This document shows, in pieces, positions 2,800 through 17,500 of a stretch of 43,346 nucleotides of DNA. The stretch is from Candidatus Eiseniibacteriota bacterium (lineage in GTDB: Bacteria; Eisenbacteria; RBG-16-71-46; JABDJR01; JAWXBZ01): NCBI GenBank assembly GCA_034440375.1, contig JAWXBZ010000218.1:1-43346 (forward strand), written 5' to 3'. The position numbers were made by a program, and so were the translations under genes. Position 1 is the first letter of the stretch. Each line of letters opens with the position of its first letter. The notes under the pieces were generated by a model that saw only the letters and a list, made by a program, of their open reading frames with translations, was not told where the DNA came from and searched no databases.

Positions 2800-3003
2800 G
2801 GCCTCCGCCGTGCGGATCAAAATCAAGCGGCAGCGGTCGAAGTTCGCCCGGGCCGAGGGGCCAAAGGTATGCCGGCCGGCCGGTGCTGCACCCGTCGGGG
2901 CATCAAATTCTCCCGGTCGAAATCGTTGCCAGTCGGAAAGATACCGTGCCGGGCCCACGCCGACCCCCCATTGCGCCCCCGGCGGCCCGATCCTTGCGTA
3001 TTC

Positions 3004-3030
3004 GGAACTTTGCGTTAATCGACTGGTCTT
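3004..3030 (+). promoter_or_regulatory. Candidate ECF (sigmaE-like) promoter upstream of prkA
   Basis: GGAACTT (3004-3010), 15 nt, GTCTT (3026-3030). An overlapping TTGCGT-18-TATCTT sigma70-like reading is also possible. Confidence 0.3.
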
Positions 3031-3123
3031 CCATATCTTGAATTCAGGGGACCGGTTAACGCCACCCAATGCCAGCCGGACGGCGTCCGCCGGGGCGGGC
3101 CATGGAATCAGGGGGATGTGGAA

Positions 3124-5172
<2,049 letters not shown>

Positions 5173-9757: not shown

Positions 9758-11844
9758 GTGGGTGCTTCGATGCCGGCCTCGGGTCGTTCGACCTCAAATT
9801 TTCCCGAGCCGTTGGTCCTCGCGGCCATCCTCCTTGGAGCCCTGATCGTCGTCTACTTCCCGGCGATCGGCGGGCAGTTCCTCTGGGACGATGACGCTCA
9901 TGTCACCGCGCCGGCGCTGCGTTCCCTCCCCGGCCTCTACCGCATCTGGTTCGACCTCGGAGCGACCCAGCAGTACTATCCGCTTATCCACACCATTTTC
10001 TGGATACAACATCGACTCTGGGGCGACTGGGTATCGGGCTATCACCTGGTCGGCATCCTGCTTCACGCCGTCAACGCACTTCTCGTCTACGCCGTGTTGC
10101 GGCGGCTCTTGATCACGGCCCCGACGGCGGCGCTGGCCGCCCTGGTCTGGGCGCTGCATCCGGTCATGGTCGAATCGGTGGCCTGGATCACCGAGCAGAA
10201 AAACACCCTGTCGGGCGCGTGCTACCTGGGCGCCCTGTACGTCTGGCTCAAGTTCGACGATTCCCGCCGCCCGCGGGACTACCTGCTGGCCTCCGCGCTC
10301 TTCCTGTCGGCCCTCCTATGCAAGACAGTCACCGCCTCGCTTCCTGCCGCCATCCTGGTTGTGCTGTGGTGGAAACGGGGCGCCCTTTCGATCCGGCGCG
10401 ATGTCCTGCCGCTCATTCCATGGTTCGTGCTGGGAGCCGCGGCCGGGCTGTTGACCGCCTGGGTGGAAACCCACGTGATAGGGGCCCACGGATCGGCCTA
10501 TGACCTGAGCCTTCTTTCACGGAGCCTGCTGGCGGGTCGGATCATCTGGTTTTACCTCGGCAAACTGCTCTGGCCATGGAATCTGATCTTCATCTATCCC
10601 CGATGGATAATCGATCCGGGGCTCTGGTGGCACTGGATATTCCCGATGGGTGCCGTCGCGCTGGTCATGGCCCTCTGGATTTTCCGCGCCCGCCTTCGGG
10701 GAATGCTGGCGGGTTCCTGTTTTTTGTCGGCACCCTCTTTCCGGTCCTCGGATTTCTGAATGTCTATCCGTTTCAATTCTCCTACGTGGCGGATCACTTC
10801 CAGTACCTGGCCAGCCTTGGAATTCTGGTGCCGGTGTCGGTTTTGGCGACGCAACTCCTCCCGCGGCTTCCGGCGGTGGGGCAACGCCTGGGTCTGGCCA
10901 CCGGTTTGGCGCTGCTCGTGGTGCTCGGCCTCCTGACCTGGTCACAGACCCAACGGTACCGCGACATGGAGACGCTTTTCGGTGATGTCCTCAAGCGGAA
11001 TCCGGGCTCGTGGATGGCCCATGTTCACATGGGCACCATCAGGCAGTCGGAGGGGCGTGTCGACGAGGCGATGACTCACTTCCAGACGGCGACGACAATC
11101 AATCCCGATTATTTCGGCGCCCACATCAACATGGGAAATATCCACATGCAGGATGGGCGGACACTCCAGGCCGTCAAAGCGTATGATCGGGCTGTTCGCT
11201 TGAATCCGAAGGACCCTCTGTCTCACTACTCGCTGGGCGCCGCCCTGGCCCGGCTGGGGCGCTCGGACGAAGCGATCGACCACTACGAGCAGTCGCTCCA
11301 GCTTGGGATTGGTCCGGCTCTCGAGTCCGACGCGCGACTCGGTTTGGGGCTGGCGCTGGTGAGCCAGAATCGACCCGTGGAAGCGATCCCTCAACTGGAG
11401 TCGGCCCTGGCGCGGCGCCCCGTCGATCCGGAAGCCCATTGCGGCCTGGCACTCCTGCTCCTTTCGCAGGGAGAGTCGGGCAAAGCGGCCGGCCATTTCG
11501 AACAGGCCGTGCAATATCGACCCGATTACCCGGAGGCGTTGAACGGCCTGGCCTGGATTCGTGCCACCGACGCCAATCCGGCAAACCGGAGTGGGGCTCT
11601 GGCCGTTCGACTGGCCCGACGCGCCGTGGAGTTGACGGGCGGCCAGAACCCCTACTATCTGGACACGCTCGCTGCCGCCCATGCGGAGGCGGGTTCGTTT
11701 CCCGAAGCCCTGGCCGCGGGCGAGCGAGCGCTGGAGCTGTCCCGCGCCGGCGGTCTATCGGATCTGGAGGAACAGATCCAGGACCACCTGTCCGACTACC
11801 AGGCCAACCGGAAATTATCGGTGCCCCCGGTGGGGGACCGCTGA
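9758..11844 (+). pseudogene. TMTC-like GT-C membrane glycosyltransferase with C-terminal TPRs, split by a 1-nt frameshift near 10712 (pseudogene or sequencing error)
   Basis: ORF 9758-10759 has FLWDDDAHV, QYYPL, HPVMVESVAWITEQKN, ALLCK. ORF 10576-11844 continues FLFFVGTLFPVLGF...VADHFQYLA plus TPRs. Adding one base in GCG GG- TTC joins them into about 695 aa. Confidence 0.82.
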
Positions 11845-11862: not shown

Positions 11863-12954
11863 CTACGGCAGGAACTTGTCGGTGACCTTCAGCTTCTCCG
11901 GGAGGTAGGTCTCGATGACATAGTTCAGCCCGTGCGCGGCCAACGCCTGCTGCTCGGCACGGACACCCATCGAAAGCAGCTTCTCCATCGCCTTCTGCCA
12001 GATCTTGTGGTGCTGAAAGAACGGATCATTCTTGATGGCATCCCGGGCCCGCTTGACGTCGATCTCCTTGAGCGGGTGCGTGGGCAACTCGTAGTCGATG
12101 ATGTCCTGTGGCGTGATCCCCAGGAAGCGGGCCTGCGGCACGCAGAAGAACTCGTTCAGGTGCGCCGCGCTTCCGGAACCGACCTTGAGCGTCCGATATA
12201 TGTTGGCGATGCCGTACGGGTCGCCGTCAACGAAAACATAGACCGGTATCTTCTTGTCGTCGGCCAGGCGGCGAATGAAACGGCGGCAGGCCCGGGTCGG
12301 AACGCCCCCCATCGAGATCAGGATGCAGTTGGATTGCTTCCAGTAGTTGTGCTTGACCAGCCGCTGGAACATGCCGGCCGTTTCGATGACCAGGATGAAG
12401 CTGGCCTTGGTCTCGAACTGAAGATCCTCCACGGTGATGGGGATCGAGTAGGCACCGCTGCCGAACTTGGTGCAGTCGATGCGGAGCGGTTGACCGGTGT
12501 CGCGGTCCTTGTCGATGACGACCAGCTGGCCCGCCACTTCGCCCCCCTTCTCTTCGGGGATGAAGCCAAGCTGCTCGCGATTGACACTGAAGAGCGCCTC
12601 CACGTCGTCCATGACCGTGTCCGACTCCGGCTGTTCCAGAAAGCGGGCTTCGCCCCAGTTCTTCGAAACGTAGTAGGCCTCCCGCTTCGTGGCAATGTCG
12701 TCATTTTCGACCAGCTGTTTGCTCAGGGCCATCATCCGAAGCGTCTGGGCAAATGTCTTCACCGTGTTCACGGTCAGCGTCCGCTCCTTCTTCAAACCGC
12801 GAATCTCGAAGTACCCCTGCTTCGGCGTGTAGCGCACATTGGCCAGCGATCGGATCGGAAACTTCATGGATGGCTTGTCGCGCTTCAGGATTTTGCTGTG
12901 AACATTCTCGGCTTCGGCGACGATTTTCCTGGCGACGGACTTGGCGGCTGCCAT
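11863..12954 (-). CDS. top6A: DNA topoisomerase VI subunit A (Spo11-like)
   Basis: Catalytic-Tyr motif TKREAYY, F..Q.ESD, TOPRIM Glu in VIETAGMF, GGVP..A.R.F, DxD motif DGDPYG, RAEQQAL. ATG overlaps the upstream stop (TGATG). Confidence 0.93.
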   Translation of the reverse strand: MAAAKSVARKIVAEAENVHSKILKRDKPSMKFPIRSLANVRYTPKQGYFEIRGLKKERTLTVNTVKTFAQTLRMMALSKQLVENDDIATKREAYYVSKNWGEARFLEQPESDTVMDDVEALFSVNREQLGFIPEEKGGEVAGQLVVIDKDRDTGQPLRIDCTKFGSGAYSIPITVEDLQFETKASFILVIETAGMFQRLVKHNYWKQSNCILISMGGVPTRACRRFIRRLADDKKIPVYVFVDGDPYGIANIYRTLKVGSGSAAHLNEFFCVPQARFLGITPQDIIDYELPTHPLKEIDVKRARDAIKNDPFFQHHKIWQKAMEKLLSMGVRAEQQALAAHGLNYVIETYLPEKLKVTDKFLP

Positions 12955-13574
12955 CAGGCACGACTCCTTAGAATGGCCCGAACCGGACTGCCGTCGAGGC
13001 CCATGAGCTTTAGCGGCAGGGCGATCAGTTCGTAATCGCCGGGGGGCACATCGGTCAAATCCAGATTTTCGAGGTTGGCGATGCCGTGGCGCCGAAGGGC
13101 GTGATGGGCATCGAGCGACTTCGAGTGAAAGTCGTCCATGGATGGGGTGTCGAGGCCGACGAGCAATACTCCGGCCTTGCCGCAGGCCTCGACGGCGGCC
13201 GGGGTGAAATGGGCGAATGGTGTCGCGTACGGATCGACCGGCCGGCATCGTCTTGTTTTGAAAAGCAGGCGCGTAGCGCCTCCCCACATGAGTCCTTCCA
13301 ATCGTCCGACATCGATCGGCCCATCCCCAGGCGCGTCAAAAACCCGCGCCGGTCCAATGTAAGCATCGAGCGGCGTCTCTCCCATCGTCAGCCCGTGGTC
13401 GGCCACGTGAAAAAAGGCGTCCGCGTGGGTGCCGGTGTGCGGACTCATGGTCAGCCGCGTCACGTTCACGGTATCCCCGCCGGACAGTCGCATGGTCCAA
13501 TCGAAGCCAAAGCGCGAATCACCCGGCCAGACCGCCATCCCGGGGGCAACGGGGGCCGTGATGTCGTAAATCAT
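12954..13574 (-). CDS. kynB: Kynurenine formamidase / cyclase-family metal hydrolase
   Basis: IYDIT.P...MAVWPGD, metal motif HTGTHAD, GLDTPSMD, LENLDL, YELIALPLKL..LDGSPVRAIL. Confidence 0.85.
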   Translation of the reverse strand: MIYDITAPVAPGMAVWPGDSRFGFDWTMRLSGGDTVNVTRLTMSPHTGTHADAFFHVADHGLTMGETPLDAYIGPARVFDAPGDGPIDVGRLEGLMWGGATRLLFKTRRCRPVDPYATPFAHFTPAAVEACGKAGVLLVGLDTPSMDDFHSKSLDAHHALRRHGIANLENLDLTDVPPGDYELIALPLKLMGLDGSPVRAILRSRA

Positions 13575-14818
13575 CAACCGACCTCACCGACCGGCGGCTG
13601 GTATTCCTTCCAGGCTCCGGACTTGAGGATGGACTGGATCTCGGCCACGACGGCATCCACCTCATCCTCGGTATTGTAGAAATGAGGGCCGATCCGGATG
13701 CCGGCGCCCGGCCGGAAATCGACGACGAACTCGCGCGCGATGAGCGTTTTGGCCACGGCATGTGCCTCGGGAACGCCGAGGCTGACCGTGGCACCCCTTC
13801 GGGCGGCTTCGCGCGGGCTGTTGATCGTGAAACCGGCGGCATCCGCCCGGTCGAAGAGCCGCTGCGACAGCTGGAGCGAGCGGGCGCGGATGGCGTTGAC
13901 GCCGATCTCGTTGATGATCCGGTAGCCGGCCGCCGCGGCGTACAGGCACGGCACATGCGGCGTGCCGTTCAGAAAACGGCCGGCGTCGTTCCGGTAGTTC
14001 ATCGGGCCGGGGTCGAACGTGAACGGTGTTTCGTGCGCCTGCCAGCCGCAGAACGACGGCTTGAGCGTGGGGATCAGTGACGGCTTCGCATACACGAAAC
14101 CGGCTCCCGGACCCCCGCAGAGCCACTTCACCGAGCCACCCGTCATGTAATCCACGTCAAGCAAAGTCACATCGCAGGGGACGGTGCCCACCGATTGGTA
14201 GGCGTCCAGCAGCACATGAGCACCGACCTGTCGGGCCCGTCGGACGATCGGCTCGATGTCGACGATGGCGGCGCTCTTGAAGAGCACATGGCTGACGACG
14301 ACGAGTTGCGTCTCCTCGTCGATCGCTTCGAGCAGTTGATCCGTGTCAAAGGAAAGTCCGTCGGCGCTCGGCACGCGAACCAGCCGGGCCCCGCGCCGGG
14401 TCAGCCCCACAAGGAGATACAGGACCGACGGAAATTCGACGTCGGTGGTCACGATCCGATTGCGGCGGCCGGTCCAGTCGTAGCTGGAGGCGATGGCCTC
14501 GACGCCGATCGTGACATTCTGGACCATCGCCACGCTCCCCATTGGAGCGTTGACGATGCGGCCGACCATGTTGCCGACCGTGATCGGCAGCTCCCACCAC
14601 CCCTCGCCCCAGGCCCGAACACCCCGATCCGCCCAGGCGTCAGCGAAGGCACGCAGCTCAGCGTACACGCCGCGGGGCATCGCCCCAAGACTGTGGCTGA
14701 CCATGTAGACGGTGTGCTCGAGGATTGGAAATTCGGCCCGCCAGGGGAGGAGGGCGTCAGCCGTCATGCGCTCCGGCGGCCCGATGGGGCCGTCGCTCTG
14801 CGGGCGGGCCGTCGTCAC
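13574..14818 (-). CDS. kynU: Kynureninase-like PLP enzyme (aminotransferase class V)
   Basis: RAEFP, SHSLGAMP, W...GV..W..GWW, EFPS, LDAYQSVG, PLP-Lys motif GGSVKWLCGGPGAG, GTP; adjacent to kynB. GTG 14818 overlaps the top6B stop (GTGA); alternative ATG at 14767. Confidence 0.75.
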   Translation of the reverse strand: MTTARPQSDGPIGPPERMTADALLPWRAEFPILEHTVYMVSHSLGAMPRGVYAELRAFADAWADRGVRAWGEGWWELPITVGNMVGRIVNAPMGSVAMVQNVTIGVEAIASSYDWTGRRNRIVTTDVEFPSVLYLLVGLTRRGARLVRVPSADGLSFDTDQLLEAIDEETQLVVVSHVLFKSAAIVDIEPIVRRARQVGAHVLLDAYQSVGTVPCDVTLLDVDYMTGGSVKWLCGGPGAGFVYAKPSLIPTLKPSFCGWQAHETPFTFDPGPMNYRNDAGRFLNGTPHVPCLYAAAAGYRIINEIGVNAIRARSLQLSQRLFDRADAAGFTINSPREAARRGATVSLGVPEAHAVAKTLIAREFVVDFRPGAGIRIGPHFYNTEDEVDAVVAEIQSILKSGAWKEYQPPVGEVG

Positions 14819-16575
14819 AGGTTGCGGCTCCGCTCCAGCGTGTCTCGAAGGGTTGCGACGACGTCCTTCTCCTGCTGGTCGCTGAGCTTCAGAATTTCCT
14901 TGAGCGCGATGCCGATGTGCGGGATGTACTTCTCGATATACGAGAGCTTTTTCAGCTCCATCGCCTCCCGCTGGCCGCGGCGGACATAAATACCGAGACG
15001 CCGGCCGCACTCCTGGATGGCCAGCCGGATTTCCTTGATGATCTCGGGATAGTGAGCGATGGCTTCCTTGCTCTCCGAGGTGAACGGTACCCAGACCGAG
15101 GCGATGTGCACCATGATGACCAGGGCCCCCGTCGGCAGGGCCCCGCGGCTCTGCTGAACGCCATAGGACTTCCAAGAGGTGGAGATGACACCTTTCGTCA
15201 CCGCGCAGGCCGACTGCTGATACAGGAGCGGCACGCGGTTGGCGAAACGGTACAGCTCGGCCAGATCGTCGCCGGGCATCTCCTTGACGTTCCACGCCAG
15301 CCCCACCTCGATCAGAAATGGATTGCCGCGGTAAACCTGCGGGCCCCGGCTGTTGGCCGTGTAGAAGTCGGCCTGGAACTGGGTTCGCATGCCGGCCAGG
15401 AGCTGGTCCTCTCCGATTGGCGAGAGGCAGTTGGTGGGCGGCGCCATGAGCTTCGTGGCATTGATCGCCTGGTAAAGTTTTTCGGCTGAATCGCGGTGGA
15501 CGCGCGACGGCGAGGTCGACTCGTCGACCTTCGCCGCTTTCAGGATGTCTTCGGCGGCCTTGGCGCTGACCCGGCTGAATTCCGTCGTCAGAAAGGCCTT
15601 CACGTTTCGGGAAGTGGTGTCCTTCAACATCCGCATCAGCATGCCGAGTTCGATGCCGTGCGGGTGCGGCTTGATCTCCATCGGCTCTTTCGGAAGCTCG
15701 TTGGTGGCCCGCTCGAAAACCATCTCCGGGTCCTTGGGCGCCTTGTACACGATCCGTGCGTGCGGGTTGGCCAGCGCCGTCTGCTCCATGTAGCCGTCGA
15801 CCGAACGTTTGCCGCGCTTGTAGGTGGCCTCCAGCTCGAGTTCGACGCGGGTGCCGTGATCCACATCCCATTCCACCTCCTTGTCCACGCCGACCACCGG
15901 CATGTTCCGGTTGGTGTCGATCTGGATCTCGAAGTGGTGGGCCGGCTTGTTCGCGTCGATCTTGCTGCGGATGATGATCGGCTTGCCGGTCGTGAGCTGC
16001 CCGTACATGCCGGCGGCCGAGATGCCGATCCCCTGCTGACCGCGACTCTGCCGCAGGCGATGAAACTTGGACCCGTACAACAGGCTGCCGAACACGCGCG
16101 GCACCTGCTGGCGCACGATGCCGGGGCCATTGTCCTCGACGACCACCCGGTAGCGGGTCTCGCTGAGCTCGACAATCTCGATCCTCAAATCCGGCAGAAT
16201 GCCGGCCTCTTCACAGGCATCGAGCGAGTTGTCGACCGCCTCCTTGATCGTGGTCAGAAGCGCCTTGGCCGGGTTGTCGAACCCAAGCAGATGCCGGTTC
16301 TTGGAGAAGAACTCACTGACCGAAATTTCGCGTTGGCGATTCGCCATCTCACGGGCATCGGGATGCACACGTACCGATTTGGGGGCGCGTTTCTCGGACG
16401 GCTCCCGTGCCGGCTTCGGCGACGCTTTTCCGGTGGGCTTTGCCGCCGCTTTTCCGGTGGGCTTTGCCGCCGCTTTCGCCGCCCCCTTTCCCGTCTGTAC
16501 AGACTTCGGCGACGGGGCCGGGATTTCTTCGGGCTCCAGAAGAGCCATCTGGGATGACGCAGTTTTTTTCGCCAA
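14815..16575 (-). CDS. top6B: DNA topoisomerase VI subunit B (GHKL ATPase) with a Lys/Ala/Pro-rich N-terminal extension
   Basis: QREISVSEFFSKNRHLLGF, KEAVDNSLDA, EDNGPGI, LYGSKFH..QSRGQQGIGIS, KPHPHG, RFANRVPL, VPFTSESKEAIA; TTG 16575 with AGGAG upstream. Confidence 0.93.
   Translation of the reverse strand: MAKKTASSQMALLEPEEIPAPSPKSVQTGKGAAKAAAKPTGKAAAKPTGKASPKPAREPSEKRAPKSVRVHPDAREMANRQREISVSEFFSKNRHLLGFDNPAKALLTTIKEAVDNSLDACEEAGILPDLRIEIVELSETRYRVVVEDNGPGIVRQQVPRVFGSLLYGSKFHRLRQSRGQQGIGISAAGMYGQLTTGKPIIIRSKIDANKPAHHFEIQIDTNRNMPVVGVDKEVEWDVDHGTRVELELEATYKRGKRSVDGYMEQTALANPHARIVYKAPKDPEMVFERATNELPKEPMEIKPHPHGIELGMLMRMLKDTTSRNVKAFLTTEFSRVSAKAAEDILKAAKVDESTSPSRVHRDSAEKLYQAINATKLMAPPTNCLSPIGEDQLLAGMRTQFQADFYTANSRGPQVYRGNPFLIEVGLAWNVKEMPGDDLAELYRFANRVPLLYQQSACAVTKGVISTSWKSYGVQQSRGALPTGALVIMVHIASVWVPFTSESKEAIAHYPEIIKEIRLAIQECGRRLGIYVRRGQREAMELKKLSYIEKYIPHIGIALKEILKLSDQQEKDVVATLRDTLERSRNL
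16423..16476. repeat. In-frame 24-bp tandem repeat (2.25 copies) encoding AAAKPTGK in Top6B
   Basis: CGCTTTTCCGGTGGGCTTTGCCGC at 16423-16446 and 16447-16470, followed by a partial CGCTTT. Confidence 0.9.
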
Positions 16576-16626: not shown

Positions 16627-16656
16627 ATTCTGCGTTGCGAAGGGAGGAAGCGTCAA
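16627..16656 (-). promoter_or_regulatory. Putative sigma70 promoter of the top6B-kynU-kynB-top6A operon
   Basis: Minus strand TTGACG, 18 nt, CAGAAT, about 50 nt upstream of the top6B start. Confidence 0.4.
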
Positions 16657-16699: not shown

Positions 16700-17500
16700 A
16701 TGCCATCCGTCCCCGCTGCCGTCAACGGAACCGTCAGATTTCGCATCGTGCGAATCGCCCGGTTCTGGTTGCTCGCCACCATGGCTTCCATCGGCCTGTG
16801 CCTTGTGGCGGCAATTCGCGTCGGCCGGATCGATCCGACACTGGTGCGGGCGGGCAGCGTCGGTGTGATTGCGCTTCCGCTCCTCGTTGTTGCCGCCGCA
16901 GGGATCCTGATCGGCGTTCTGCTTGATCAGATCATTGGCCGGCTCGGCGATTTGGGTCGCTTAGTCGCGCGGCGGATGCGACCGGATCAAGCACCTCCGT
17001 CCCCCGCAATTCTTGAAACGACTCGAGTCGATGTGACCATGGCGCTCATCGCGCTGGCGGGTTCGTGGACCGCCTTTAAATGGTTGGCAATTCCCCTGAC
17101 CATCCCCGGTCGCGGCGCAGTCAGCGTTCCGATGATCGCCGCGAGCGCCGGCCCGTTGCTCATTCCGCTGTCGATCGGGCTGGGACTTGAGGCGGTGCTG
17201 GGTCTCGCCCGGCTCATTGTCGGCGAATCGGGGCGCTGGTGGTTCACGCGCGCGCTGCTCCGCCTGTCCTGGATCGCATTCGCGGTCATTGTCATTGCCG
17301 GACCCAATCTATTGATCGGCGATCCTCTTGAATGGGCCTCGCGCATTGGCCCTTCGCCGCTATCGGTTGAGTGGCTTGAAGCAGCCCCCCGTGCGATGGC
17401 GGCGGGCTGGCCGCTGGCACAGATTGCATTGGCAGGAATGCTGGTATGGCAGTTACTGACGCTCATTCGGGAGGTACCGCGAGTCTGGCGACGATCGTGA
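16700..17500 (+). CDS. Hypothetical multi-pass membrane protein
   Basis: About six hydrophobic segments; fills the gap between top6B and iaaA. Start ATG 16700 (or 16691). No family recognised. Confidence 0.55.
   Translation: MPSVPAAVNGTVRFRIVRIARFWLLATMASIGLCLVAAIRVGRIDPTLVRAGSVGVIALPLLVVAAAGILIGVLLDQIIGRLGDLGRLVARRMRPDQAPPSPAILETTRVDVTMALIALAGSWTAFKWLAIPLTIPGRGAVSVPMIAASAGPLLIPLSIGLGLEAVLGLARLIVGESGRWWFTRALLRLSWIAFAVIVIAGPNLLIGDPLEWASRIGPSPLSVEWLEAAPRAMAAGWPLAQIALAGMLVWQLLTLIREVPRVWRRS

Follow-up and report, generated by a model that had tools for sequence, protein, structure and literature searches.

The window analysed here, a stretch of 43,346 nucleotides from Candidatus Eiseniibacteriota bacterium (assembly GCA_034440375.1, contig JAWXBZ010000218.1), encodes an archaeal-type topoisomerase VI (Topo VI) whose two subunit genes are separated by two genes of kynurenine metabolism. 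Positions 11863 to 16575 contain four consecutive minus-strand open reading frames (ORFs), in the order top6B, kynU-like gene, kynB and top6A. We consider it likely that the kyn cassette is an old single insertion between top6B and top6A, which rides on the Topo VI operon without a functional link to it. The genes, together with a promoter match upstream of them, are as follows.

14815..16575, minus strand: top6B, Topo VI B subunit with GHKL ATPase and transducer domain (profile and structure matches)
13574..14818, minus strand: 'kynU', kynureninase-like pyridoxal phosphate (PLP) enzyme (KYNU_C and Aminotran_5 matches)
12954..13574, minus strand: kynB, arylformamidase (kynurenine formamidase; matches to Pfam Cyclase, TIGR03035 and solved KynB)
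11863..12954, minus strand: top6A, Topo VI A subunit with 5Y-CAP and Toprim domains
16627..16656, minus strand: sigma-70-like promoter match 5' of top6B (TTGACG, 18-base spacer, CAGAAT)

The order to which the window belongs was represented by ten species genomes from two families (f1 and f2) and six genera. We found top6A in all ten, and in every one of them kynB lies directly 5' of top6A, between it and top6B. Nine genomes have the arrangement with top6B upstream on one contig; in G009 it is split, with one contig ending in top6B and the N-terminal part of kynU and a second starting with the C-terminal part of kynU, followed by kynB and top6A. The kynU-like gene is present between top6B and kynB in six genomes (G000, G009 and the four of genus g3: G002, G004, G005 and G007) and missing from the slot in G001, G003, G006 and G008. 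The arrangement is therefore not confined to a single genome, a possibility that the initial annotation of this DNA had raised. The ratio of non-synonymous to synonymous substitution rates (dN/dS) within the order indicated purifying selection on all four genes: 0.06-0.18 for top6A, 0.07-0.31 for top6B, 0.13-0.34 for kynB and 0.10-0.40 for kynU. Judging from these ratios and from the conserved catalytic motifs described below, the kyn genes are functional in the order. A side observation concerns top6A of G006, whose match (L119, 13248-14332) splits into two frames near residue 317; a second fragment about 10 kb away (2907-3170) covers residues 267-364 and contains one TGA. Either a frameshift in the gene or an error of long-read assembly might explain this.

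The distribution outside the order was followed in a class sample of 61 genomes, in which G054, flagged as unpublished, is counted, also in the kynB, GyrA/ParC and top6A tallies. Here top6A was present in 40 genomes and kynB in 27, and the 17 kynB carriers outside the order all hold the gene away from top6A; no kyn gene lay within 1.5 kb of top6A at any of the 20 class loci outside the order. Across phyla, we compared the best 80 of at least 567 Topo VI matches, from metagenome-assembled genomes (MAGs) whose record names read Acidobacteriota, Candidatus Eisenbacteria, Latescibacterota, Krumholzibacteriia and others, labels that are unreliable. Only L033 has kynB between the subunit genes, with the same three-gene arrangement and identities as G001, and none of the other 79 does. 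Among 80 metagenome loci selected for kynB, two have a Topo VI context, namely L159, identical to the window, and L160, which shows the order top6B-kynU-kynB and a kynB 74% identical to the window's. Two Acidobacteria-labelled loci carry a Cyclase-family gene 33% identical to the window kynB (L054, 3443-4063, minus strand; L045, 4552-5172, minus strand). These genes are convergent and lie downstream of top6A, by about 76 bases in L054 and about 2.7 kb in L045, and may be near it by chance.

The junction between the subunit genes is filled by other genes in other lineages. top6B and top6A are less than 300 bases apart in 55 of the 72 cross-phylum loci with both genes placed, and 357 to 6154 bases apart in the other 17. 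The wider gaps hold an M32 carboxypeptidase gene in seven loci (L087, L091, L096, L100, L104, L106 and L110), a DJ-1/PfpI protein gene in two (L089 and L109), S-adenosylmethionine (SAM) methyltransferase genes in two (L104 and L107) and a gene for a PilZ-domain protein of 1212 residues in one (L090). Three of the four ORFs tried in the L107 gap were without a Pfam family, the fourth being the methyltransferase; no Pfam family was matched by the gap ORFs tried in L056, L070, L095, L099, L120 and L121, and the 1717-base gap of L111 holds no same-strand ORF of at least 70 residues. As the genes in these gaps are unrelated, the subunit junction has been occupied repeatedly. With the kyn genes found in the operon throughout one order, elsewhere only at L033, L159 and L160 among the loci examined, and unrelated genes in the slot of other lineages, the lineage-specific insertion that the initial annotation had offered as one explanation gains support. 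The other explanation it had offered, a link between kynurenine-pathway metabolites and Topo VI, does not: outside the order, kynB was not found at E <= 1e-20 in 19 of the 30 genomes that carry top6A, including all 11 of family f9, and six class genomes, G054 among them, have kynB without top6A. The occurrence of each without the other argues against co-dependence.

Within the window, the TGATG at 13576-13572 combines the kynU stop with the kynB ATG and that at 12956-12952 the kynB stop with the top6A ATG, one base being shared in each case. Shine-Dalgarno-like GAGG and AAGGAG sequences stand 7-8 bases before the kynB and top6A starts, with AAGGAG 8 bases before that of top6A. At the third junction, the GTGA at 14818-14815 overlaps the top6B stop with an in-frame kynU GTG. 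This overlap is uncertain because the ATG at 14767, 17 codons downstream and preceded by GGAG, is an equally good start, with which the gap to top6B would be 47 bases; the earlier description of an operon with no gap at any junction thus holds for kynU/kynB and kynB/top6A. The 4-base overlaps among the relatives were in G001, G002 and G003, gaps elsewhere measuring 2-250 bases; both figures depend on the start codons chosen. The sigma-70-like match upstream, put forward earlier as a candidate promoter, does not hold up as evidence of function, because one such site was observed 5' of top6B against a mean of 0.8 in shuffled sequence, which is the chance level. It falls within the stretch of about 220 bases between the top6B start and a plus-strand ORF whose start is probably near 16792. 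None of the 20 sequencing runs listed as containing the window sequence is an RNA run. Forced co-expression of the kyn and Topo VI genes, as first suggested for this locus, is a reasonable inference from the overlaps.

The physical arrangement itself is secure. Of four sequencing runs compared, all of them other than X1, the possible source of the window, X2, X4 and X7 gave contigs that bridge all three junctions (X6 gave short pieces only), and the metagenome contig L159, 111,540 bases long, carries the identical four genes. The four-gene arrangement is not a chimeric assembly, against which the initial annotation had cautioned, and its reading of four minus-strand genes in the order top6B-kynU-kynB-top6A was confirmed for both the ORFs and their families.

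Both Topo VI subunits appear complete. The top6B product scored 702.9 bits on NF003218 (cut-off 274) and 555.7 bits on TIGR01052 (cut-off 380.7), matched Pfam Topo-VIb_trans (E 2.3e-55) and HATPase_c, and aligned with Methanosarcina mazei Top6B (2q2e_B) at E 2.2e-152. Conserved in this alignment are the N box (EAVDNSLDA), the G1 box (EDNGPG), the G2 box (GQQGIG) and the switch-lysine motif (FTSESKEA), the box names and Topo VI motif definitions being those given in PMC7671362. The protein hence has the features of a type IIB B subunit, a GHKL/Bergerat ATPase with N, G1 and G2 (GxxGxG) boxes and a transducer with the switch lysine. Its start is more likely the TTG at 16575 than the alternative ATG at 16548, because the N-terminus so defined aligns with that of the G001 protein. 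The top6A product exceeded the cut-offs of Pfam TP6A_N, Topo_VI_alpha and TOP6A-Spo11_Toprim and matched Methanocaldococcus jannaschii Top6A (1d3y) over 301 residues (E 1.9e-115, 388.8 bits), with KREAYYVS (the context of the catalytic Tyr), IETAG (the Toprim Glu) and DGDPYG (DxDxxG) aligned. It likewise has what defines a type IIB A subunit, a 5Y-CAP domain with the catalytic Tyr in an RxxY/FY context and a Toprim domain with Glu and DxDxxG. These alignments bear out the earlier statement that both subunits keep their catalytic motifs, and an A2B2 Topo VI with ATP-dependent strand passage is predicted. Top6A is much closer to the M. jannaschii protein than to those of M. mazei (230.1 bits) or Sulfolobus (163.7 bits), and its identity is 68-86% across bacterial MAGs labelled as several phyla, which suggests a single clade of bacterial Topo VI, strongly conserved and with a specific affinity to archaea.

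The kynB product is a KynB by its full-length likeness to solved enzymes (4cob, E 6.4e-53; 4cog, E 2.2e-51; 4cz1 also matches) and by its Pfam Cyclase match, and matches isatin hydrolases weakly. On TIGR03035 it covers profile positions 2-205 of 206 and scored 214 bits against a cut-off of 223.05, a near miss that leaves it outside the equivalog. The HxGTHxDxxxH motif, which we take to be the one that binds metal ions in KynB, is present as SPHTGTHADAFFH, and its PH.G.HAD...H form is invariant in the kynB of all ten order genomes, each of which has one strong kynB match.

The identity of the kynU product is less straightforward. It matched Pfam KYNU_C (PF22580) with 64.6 bits (cut-off 27) and Aminotran_5 with 121.6 bits, and its nearest solved relative, over the full length, is Pseudomonas fluorescens kynureninase (1qz9) with 158.9 bits, the next being a cysteine desulfurase with 87.8. 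The alignment with 1qz9 pairs GGSVKWLCGGPG with GCTYKYLNGGPG, DAYQS with DLAHS and DFRPGAGIRIG with DYREPRIMRFG. These segments presumably contain the PLP-binding lysine, the Asp and the substrate Arg, and the residues aligning with them are conserved in the f2 copies. However, the protein scored only 136.8 bits on NCBIfam TIGR01814, whose cut-off is 246.4. The same subfamily scored similarly elsewhere, as in the f2 copy of G002 (130.3 bits) and the free-standing copy of G036 (120.9 bits), in contrast to the canonical kynureninases of G001 (413.7 bits) and G003 (451.6 bits). The designation kynureninase in the initial annotation is therefore borne out by fold, domain and active-site residues and not by the equivalog score, and we call the gene kynureninase-like because of the latter. 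On these profile scores, it falls into a subfamily of its own, apart from canonical kynureninase. Over 100 homologues share 54-58% identity with it and are annotated either as 'kynureninase' (JGI) or as 'aminotransferase class V-fold PLP-dependent enzyme' (NCBI), and the subfamily is very large, with at least 8000 candidates at E <= 1e-20 (P0131-P0240 among the matches listed). Its regular pairing with kynB suggests a real, if putative, kynureninase type. In G004, the kynU frame extends about 80 codons beyond the expected stop, into kynB.

The initial annotation noted that kynA, which encodes tryptophan 2,3-dioxygenase (TDO), is absent from the window. This is correct, but the genome has TDO on contig C184, beside an M48 peptidase gene; kynA is thus not clustered with kynB and kynU as in a kynurenine operon. 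TDO was found in four of the ten order genomes (G000, G001, G003 and G008) and not in the other six, namely the four of genus g3, G006 and G009; five of these TDO-less genomes are 93-98% complete and G009 is 75% complete. The enzyme 3-hydroxyanthranilate dioxygenase (3-HAO) is present in G001, G003 and G008. In G003, the genes for 3-HAO, a canonical kynureninase, an FAD monooxygenase (putative kynurenine monooxygenase, KMO) and TDO form a cluster, and in G001 those for 3-HAO, a canonical kynureninase and TDO lie within about 6 kb on one contig. Neither cluster contains kynB, and in both genomes the only kynB is the copy in the Topo VI operon, from which kynU is missing; the operon kynB therefore completes the route. 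The best candidate for a canonical kynureninase in G008, a genome 88% complete, is SufS. A search for indoleamine 2,3-dioxygenase (IDO, PF01231) gave no match in five genomes and none in the control genomes either, and is hence uninformative. That quinolinate comes solely from the kynurenine route was rejected, because NadA was present in all five genomes tested.

As to the origin of the cassette, free-standing kynU-kynB pairs exist away from Topo VI in 4 of the 17 class kynB loci outside the order (G017, G028, G034 and G036). In these pairs a kynU of the same subfamily, 43-51% identical to the window's, lies directly 5' of kynB on the same strand, in the gene order of the operon. A different arrangement prevails in metagenomes: in 40 of the 42 loci with both genes, among the 80 kynB loci, kynB comes first and the kynU behind it is of the canonical type, only 25-32% identical to that of the window. 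The kynU tree separates the f1 and f2 copies of the order from all others with a Shimodaira-Hasegawa-like approximate likelihood ratio test (SH-aLRT) support of 83. The kynB identity between f1 and f2 is only 43-47%, and the stems of f2 are long, with 0.47 substitutions per site for kynB and about 1.3 for kynU; the low identities would follow from a faster evolution of f2. Our reading is that the cassette entered the operon once, in an ancestor of the order, that f2 then evolved fast and that kynU was lost about four times.

We therefore propose the following scenario. The ancestral operon would have been a bacterial, vertically inherited top6B-top6A, and in the common ancestor of the order an existing two-gene cassette, kynU-like gene first and kynB second, would have been inserted between the subunit genes. 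The inserted genes would encode ordinary metabolic enzymes, KynB being the only arylformamidase of each genome and, in some relatives, completing a TDO-KMO-kynureninase-HAAO cluster located elsewhere in the genome. They would be transcribed from the Topo VI promoter, with the overlapping stop and start codons probably coupling their translation to that of the neighbours. They would stay in the slot because top6A depends on read-through from top6B, which would make it a stable and permissive place. The kynU-like gene would have been lost several times later, including in both genomes with a canonical kynureninase. Topo VI would probably act as the decatenase of the cell beside a single gyrase-type enzyme and require nothing from the kyn genes.

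Several observations weigh against this scenario. In the kynB tree, f1 and f2 do not come together: f1 is nested among arylformamidases from outside the order, and f2 groups with the unplaced metagenome proteins P0093, P0099, P0102 and P0114 (SH-aLRT 98). Forcing f1 and f2 into one kynB clade costs 25.8 log-likelihood units, with p = 0.093 in the approximately unbiased (AU) test, so that the clade is not rejected; these are quick trees, and the f1 and f2 group was named after the tree had been inspected. The window kynB is 50-55% identical to many outside arylformamidases, which exceeds its identity between the two families. A single origin also demands about four independent clean losses of kynU. 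Moreover, kynB is under purifying selection in the six TDO-less genomes, and kynU too in five of them; since the genes are kept there without TDO, a plain tryptophan-to-anthranilate reading does not explain their role in these genomes. Co-transcription and translational coupling are read from the sequence, and the retention of kynB in all ten genomes over a deep divergence is also expected under selection for linkage.

The last point leads to adaptive co-regulation, in which replication and growth would call for the kyn products at the same time as for Topo VI, and selection would act on the linkage itself. Possible roles are the supply of quinolinate for NAD and the removal of N-formylkynurenine or kynurenine derived from oxidised tryptophan. 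The constancy of kynB in the slot despite divergence to 43% identity would fit such a role, as would the stop/start overlaps kept in several relatives, and the purifying selection in the six TDO-less genomes fits a substrate that does not come from enzymatic tryptophan oxidation; the window sequence also occurs in microbial-mat and sediment metagenome runs. However, Topo VI and kynB each occur without the other in the class, as described above, unrelated genes fill the same slot in other lineages, the NadA of all five genomes tested provides another quinolinate route, and kynU was cleanly lost from the slot in 4 of the 10 genomes. We thus regard adaptive co-regulation as unlikely. In its more specific form, the arylformamidase, often with the non-canonical kynureninase, would clear formylkynurenine or kynurenine formed independently of TDO, for example from tryptophan oxidised by light or by reactive oxygen species (ROS), or would feed NAD synthesis, during replication and decatenation. 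We hold this form to be improbable; it keeps some standing because kynB is in the slot in all ten genomes and under purifying selection even where TDO was not found, and because the AU p value leaves room for two captures.

Independent acquisition of kynB in the two families, or its in-place replacement by a foreign copy in one of them, would account directly for the kynB tree and for the poorer likelihood of the constrained one, as well as for the window kynB and kynU being nearer to outside proteins (50-58%) than to the f2 copies (43-51%). If it were true, repeated capture at one junction would indicate that the site is preferred or that linkage is selected for. Yet the AU test does not reject one clade, the long f2 stems account for the low identities, the kynU tree contains a split that joins f1 and f2, and two genes in the same order, orientation and site in both families are most simply explained by one event. 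Separate captures thus seem quite unlikely to us.

That Topo VI has recruited the KynB-like and KynU-like proteins as regulatory or accessory subunits, which would no longer mainly serve tryptophan catabolism, might be read from their position between the subunit genes, the apparent translational coupling and the lack of TDO in six order genomes, but it is highly improbable: the KynB metal motif and the residues of KynU aligned with the PLP lysine, Asp and Arg are invariant, in G001 and G003 only this KynB can complete the TDO/KMO/kynureninase/HAAO set, and such genes are absent from most bacterial Topo VI operons. An artefact of MAG assembly or binning, which the fragmentation of the genome into 264 contigs might suggest, has practically no chance of being right given the bridged junctions, the identical L159 and nine related genomes with the slot filled.

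As to other topoisomerases, the genome carries a single GyrA/ParC-type gene and, next to it on contig C8, a single GyrB/ParE-type gene. In the class sample, each matching genome has one GyrA/ParC-type gene (PF00521), with or without Topo VI, rows with two matches being fragments. Replacement of a lost Topo IV by Topo VI was rejected, as there is no anticorrelation between Topo VI and the GyrA/ParC-type count across the sample. Since a single gyrase-type enzyme is present regardless of Topo VI, the latter is an extra type II enzyme. PMC8837201 describes M. mazei as having gyrase and Topo VI, with Topo VI as a preferential decatenase, and by analogy a decatenase role is likely in the host of the window.

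If the kyn genes are an insertion, the locus is an example of a gene fixed between the subunit genes of an enzyme and riding on their promoter across a whole order, at a top6B/top6A junction that has been filled several times by different genes in bacterial Topo VI operons. It also draws attention to a Topo VI that is common and strongly conserved in the class, present in 40 of 61 genomes; with Topo VI beside a single gyrase-type enzyme, these bacteria are candidates for the use of Topo VI as decatenase in place of Topo IV. It further flags a large kynureninase-like subfamily of putative activity that is regularly paired with KynB. Should the linkage prove adaptive, it would be a new connection of tryptophan-derived metabolites with chromosome topology.

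A separate feature of the locus concerns the N-terminus of Top6B. Bacterial Top6B proteins carry a basic extension of 60-90 residues, rich in Lys, Arg, Ala and Pro, that reaches beyond the solved archaeal chains; in the window protein (N-terminus at 16291-16575, minus strand) it is rich in Lys, Ala and Pro and about 60-70 residues long. In many lineages the extension contains a short motif resembling the beta-sliding-clamp-binding motif, such as QLSLV, QMDLF, QPDLF, LPLF, QEELLF, QAELSF or QATLDF. A clamp-like pattern matched 19 of 65 loci (L041, L063, L067-L071, L073, L076, L079, L080, L093, L097, L114-L116 and L118-L120) versus a mean of 0.28 and a maximum of 3 in 500 residue shuffles, a pattern that was composed after the sequences had been inspected and that was applied to lineages that are not independent. 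The version in the window, QMALLEPEE, is degenerate and falls outside the pattern. A complex prediction of the N-terminal 95 residues of the window protein with the DnaN of the same genome scored 0.53, with 0.21 for the best of three controls, which offers weak support; of 78 solved complexes, 51 pass the same mark, as do 2 of 108 mismatched pairs, and at scores of up to 0.60 it is passed by only 5 of the 78 solved complexes and all 4 passing mismatches (of 180). The contact agreement of the prediction runs was at least 22% and the partner predicted local distance difference test (pLDDT) value at least 35. The pass may stem from the memory of the model, because clamp-peptide complexes have already been solved. 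If the motif is real, bacterial Topo VI would be linked to the replisome through it.

On the downstream side, the operon is flanked by a convergent gene for a tetratricopeptide repeat (TPR) protein (10576..11844, plus strand), and on the upstream side by the long plus-strand ORF, which has no Pfam match and is divergent only if it starts near 16792, as assumed here. Further neighbours encode deoxyhypusine synthase, a PMT_2 membrane protein, an isoaspartyl peptidase/asparaginase and a branched-chain amino-acid ABC transporter. The neighbouring genes are unrelated to Topo VI or kynurenine function.

That bacteria can have an archaeal-type Topo VI is, in general terms, no new finding, PMC8837201 stating that the enzyme occurs 'in some bacteria', and the arrangement described here is a gene-order variant of two known systems. 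Our literature search found no paper that pairs topoisomerase VI with kynurenine or with Eisenbacteria. Like the archaeal enzymes of Sulfolobus, Methanosarcina and Methanocaldococcus, the Topo VI of the window has both subunits with all domains and motifs, encoded on one strand with B upstream of A, and its genome, like that of M. mazei, also has one gyrase-type enzyme. Archaeal top6B and top6A are usually adjacent. In contrast, the host here is bacterial and B and A are separated by one or two metabolic genes; Top6B, unlike its archaeal counterparts, has the basic N-terminal extension, and its alignment with 2q2e_B starts at residue 63 of the window protein. Compared with the bacterial kynurenine pathway, the window KynB is close to solved bacterial enzymes, TDO is in the genome and G001 and G003 have clusters, whereas the window kynB is not beside kynA, the kynU-like gene is of a separate subfamily and the order is kynU then kynB. 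Finally, rpsU-dnaG-rpoD is a mixed-function housekeeping operon, and the locus would resemble it in placing unrelated functions under one promoter, in an order kept over long periods; it differs in that here the unrelated genes sit between two subunits of one enzyme.

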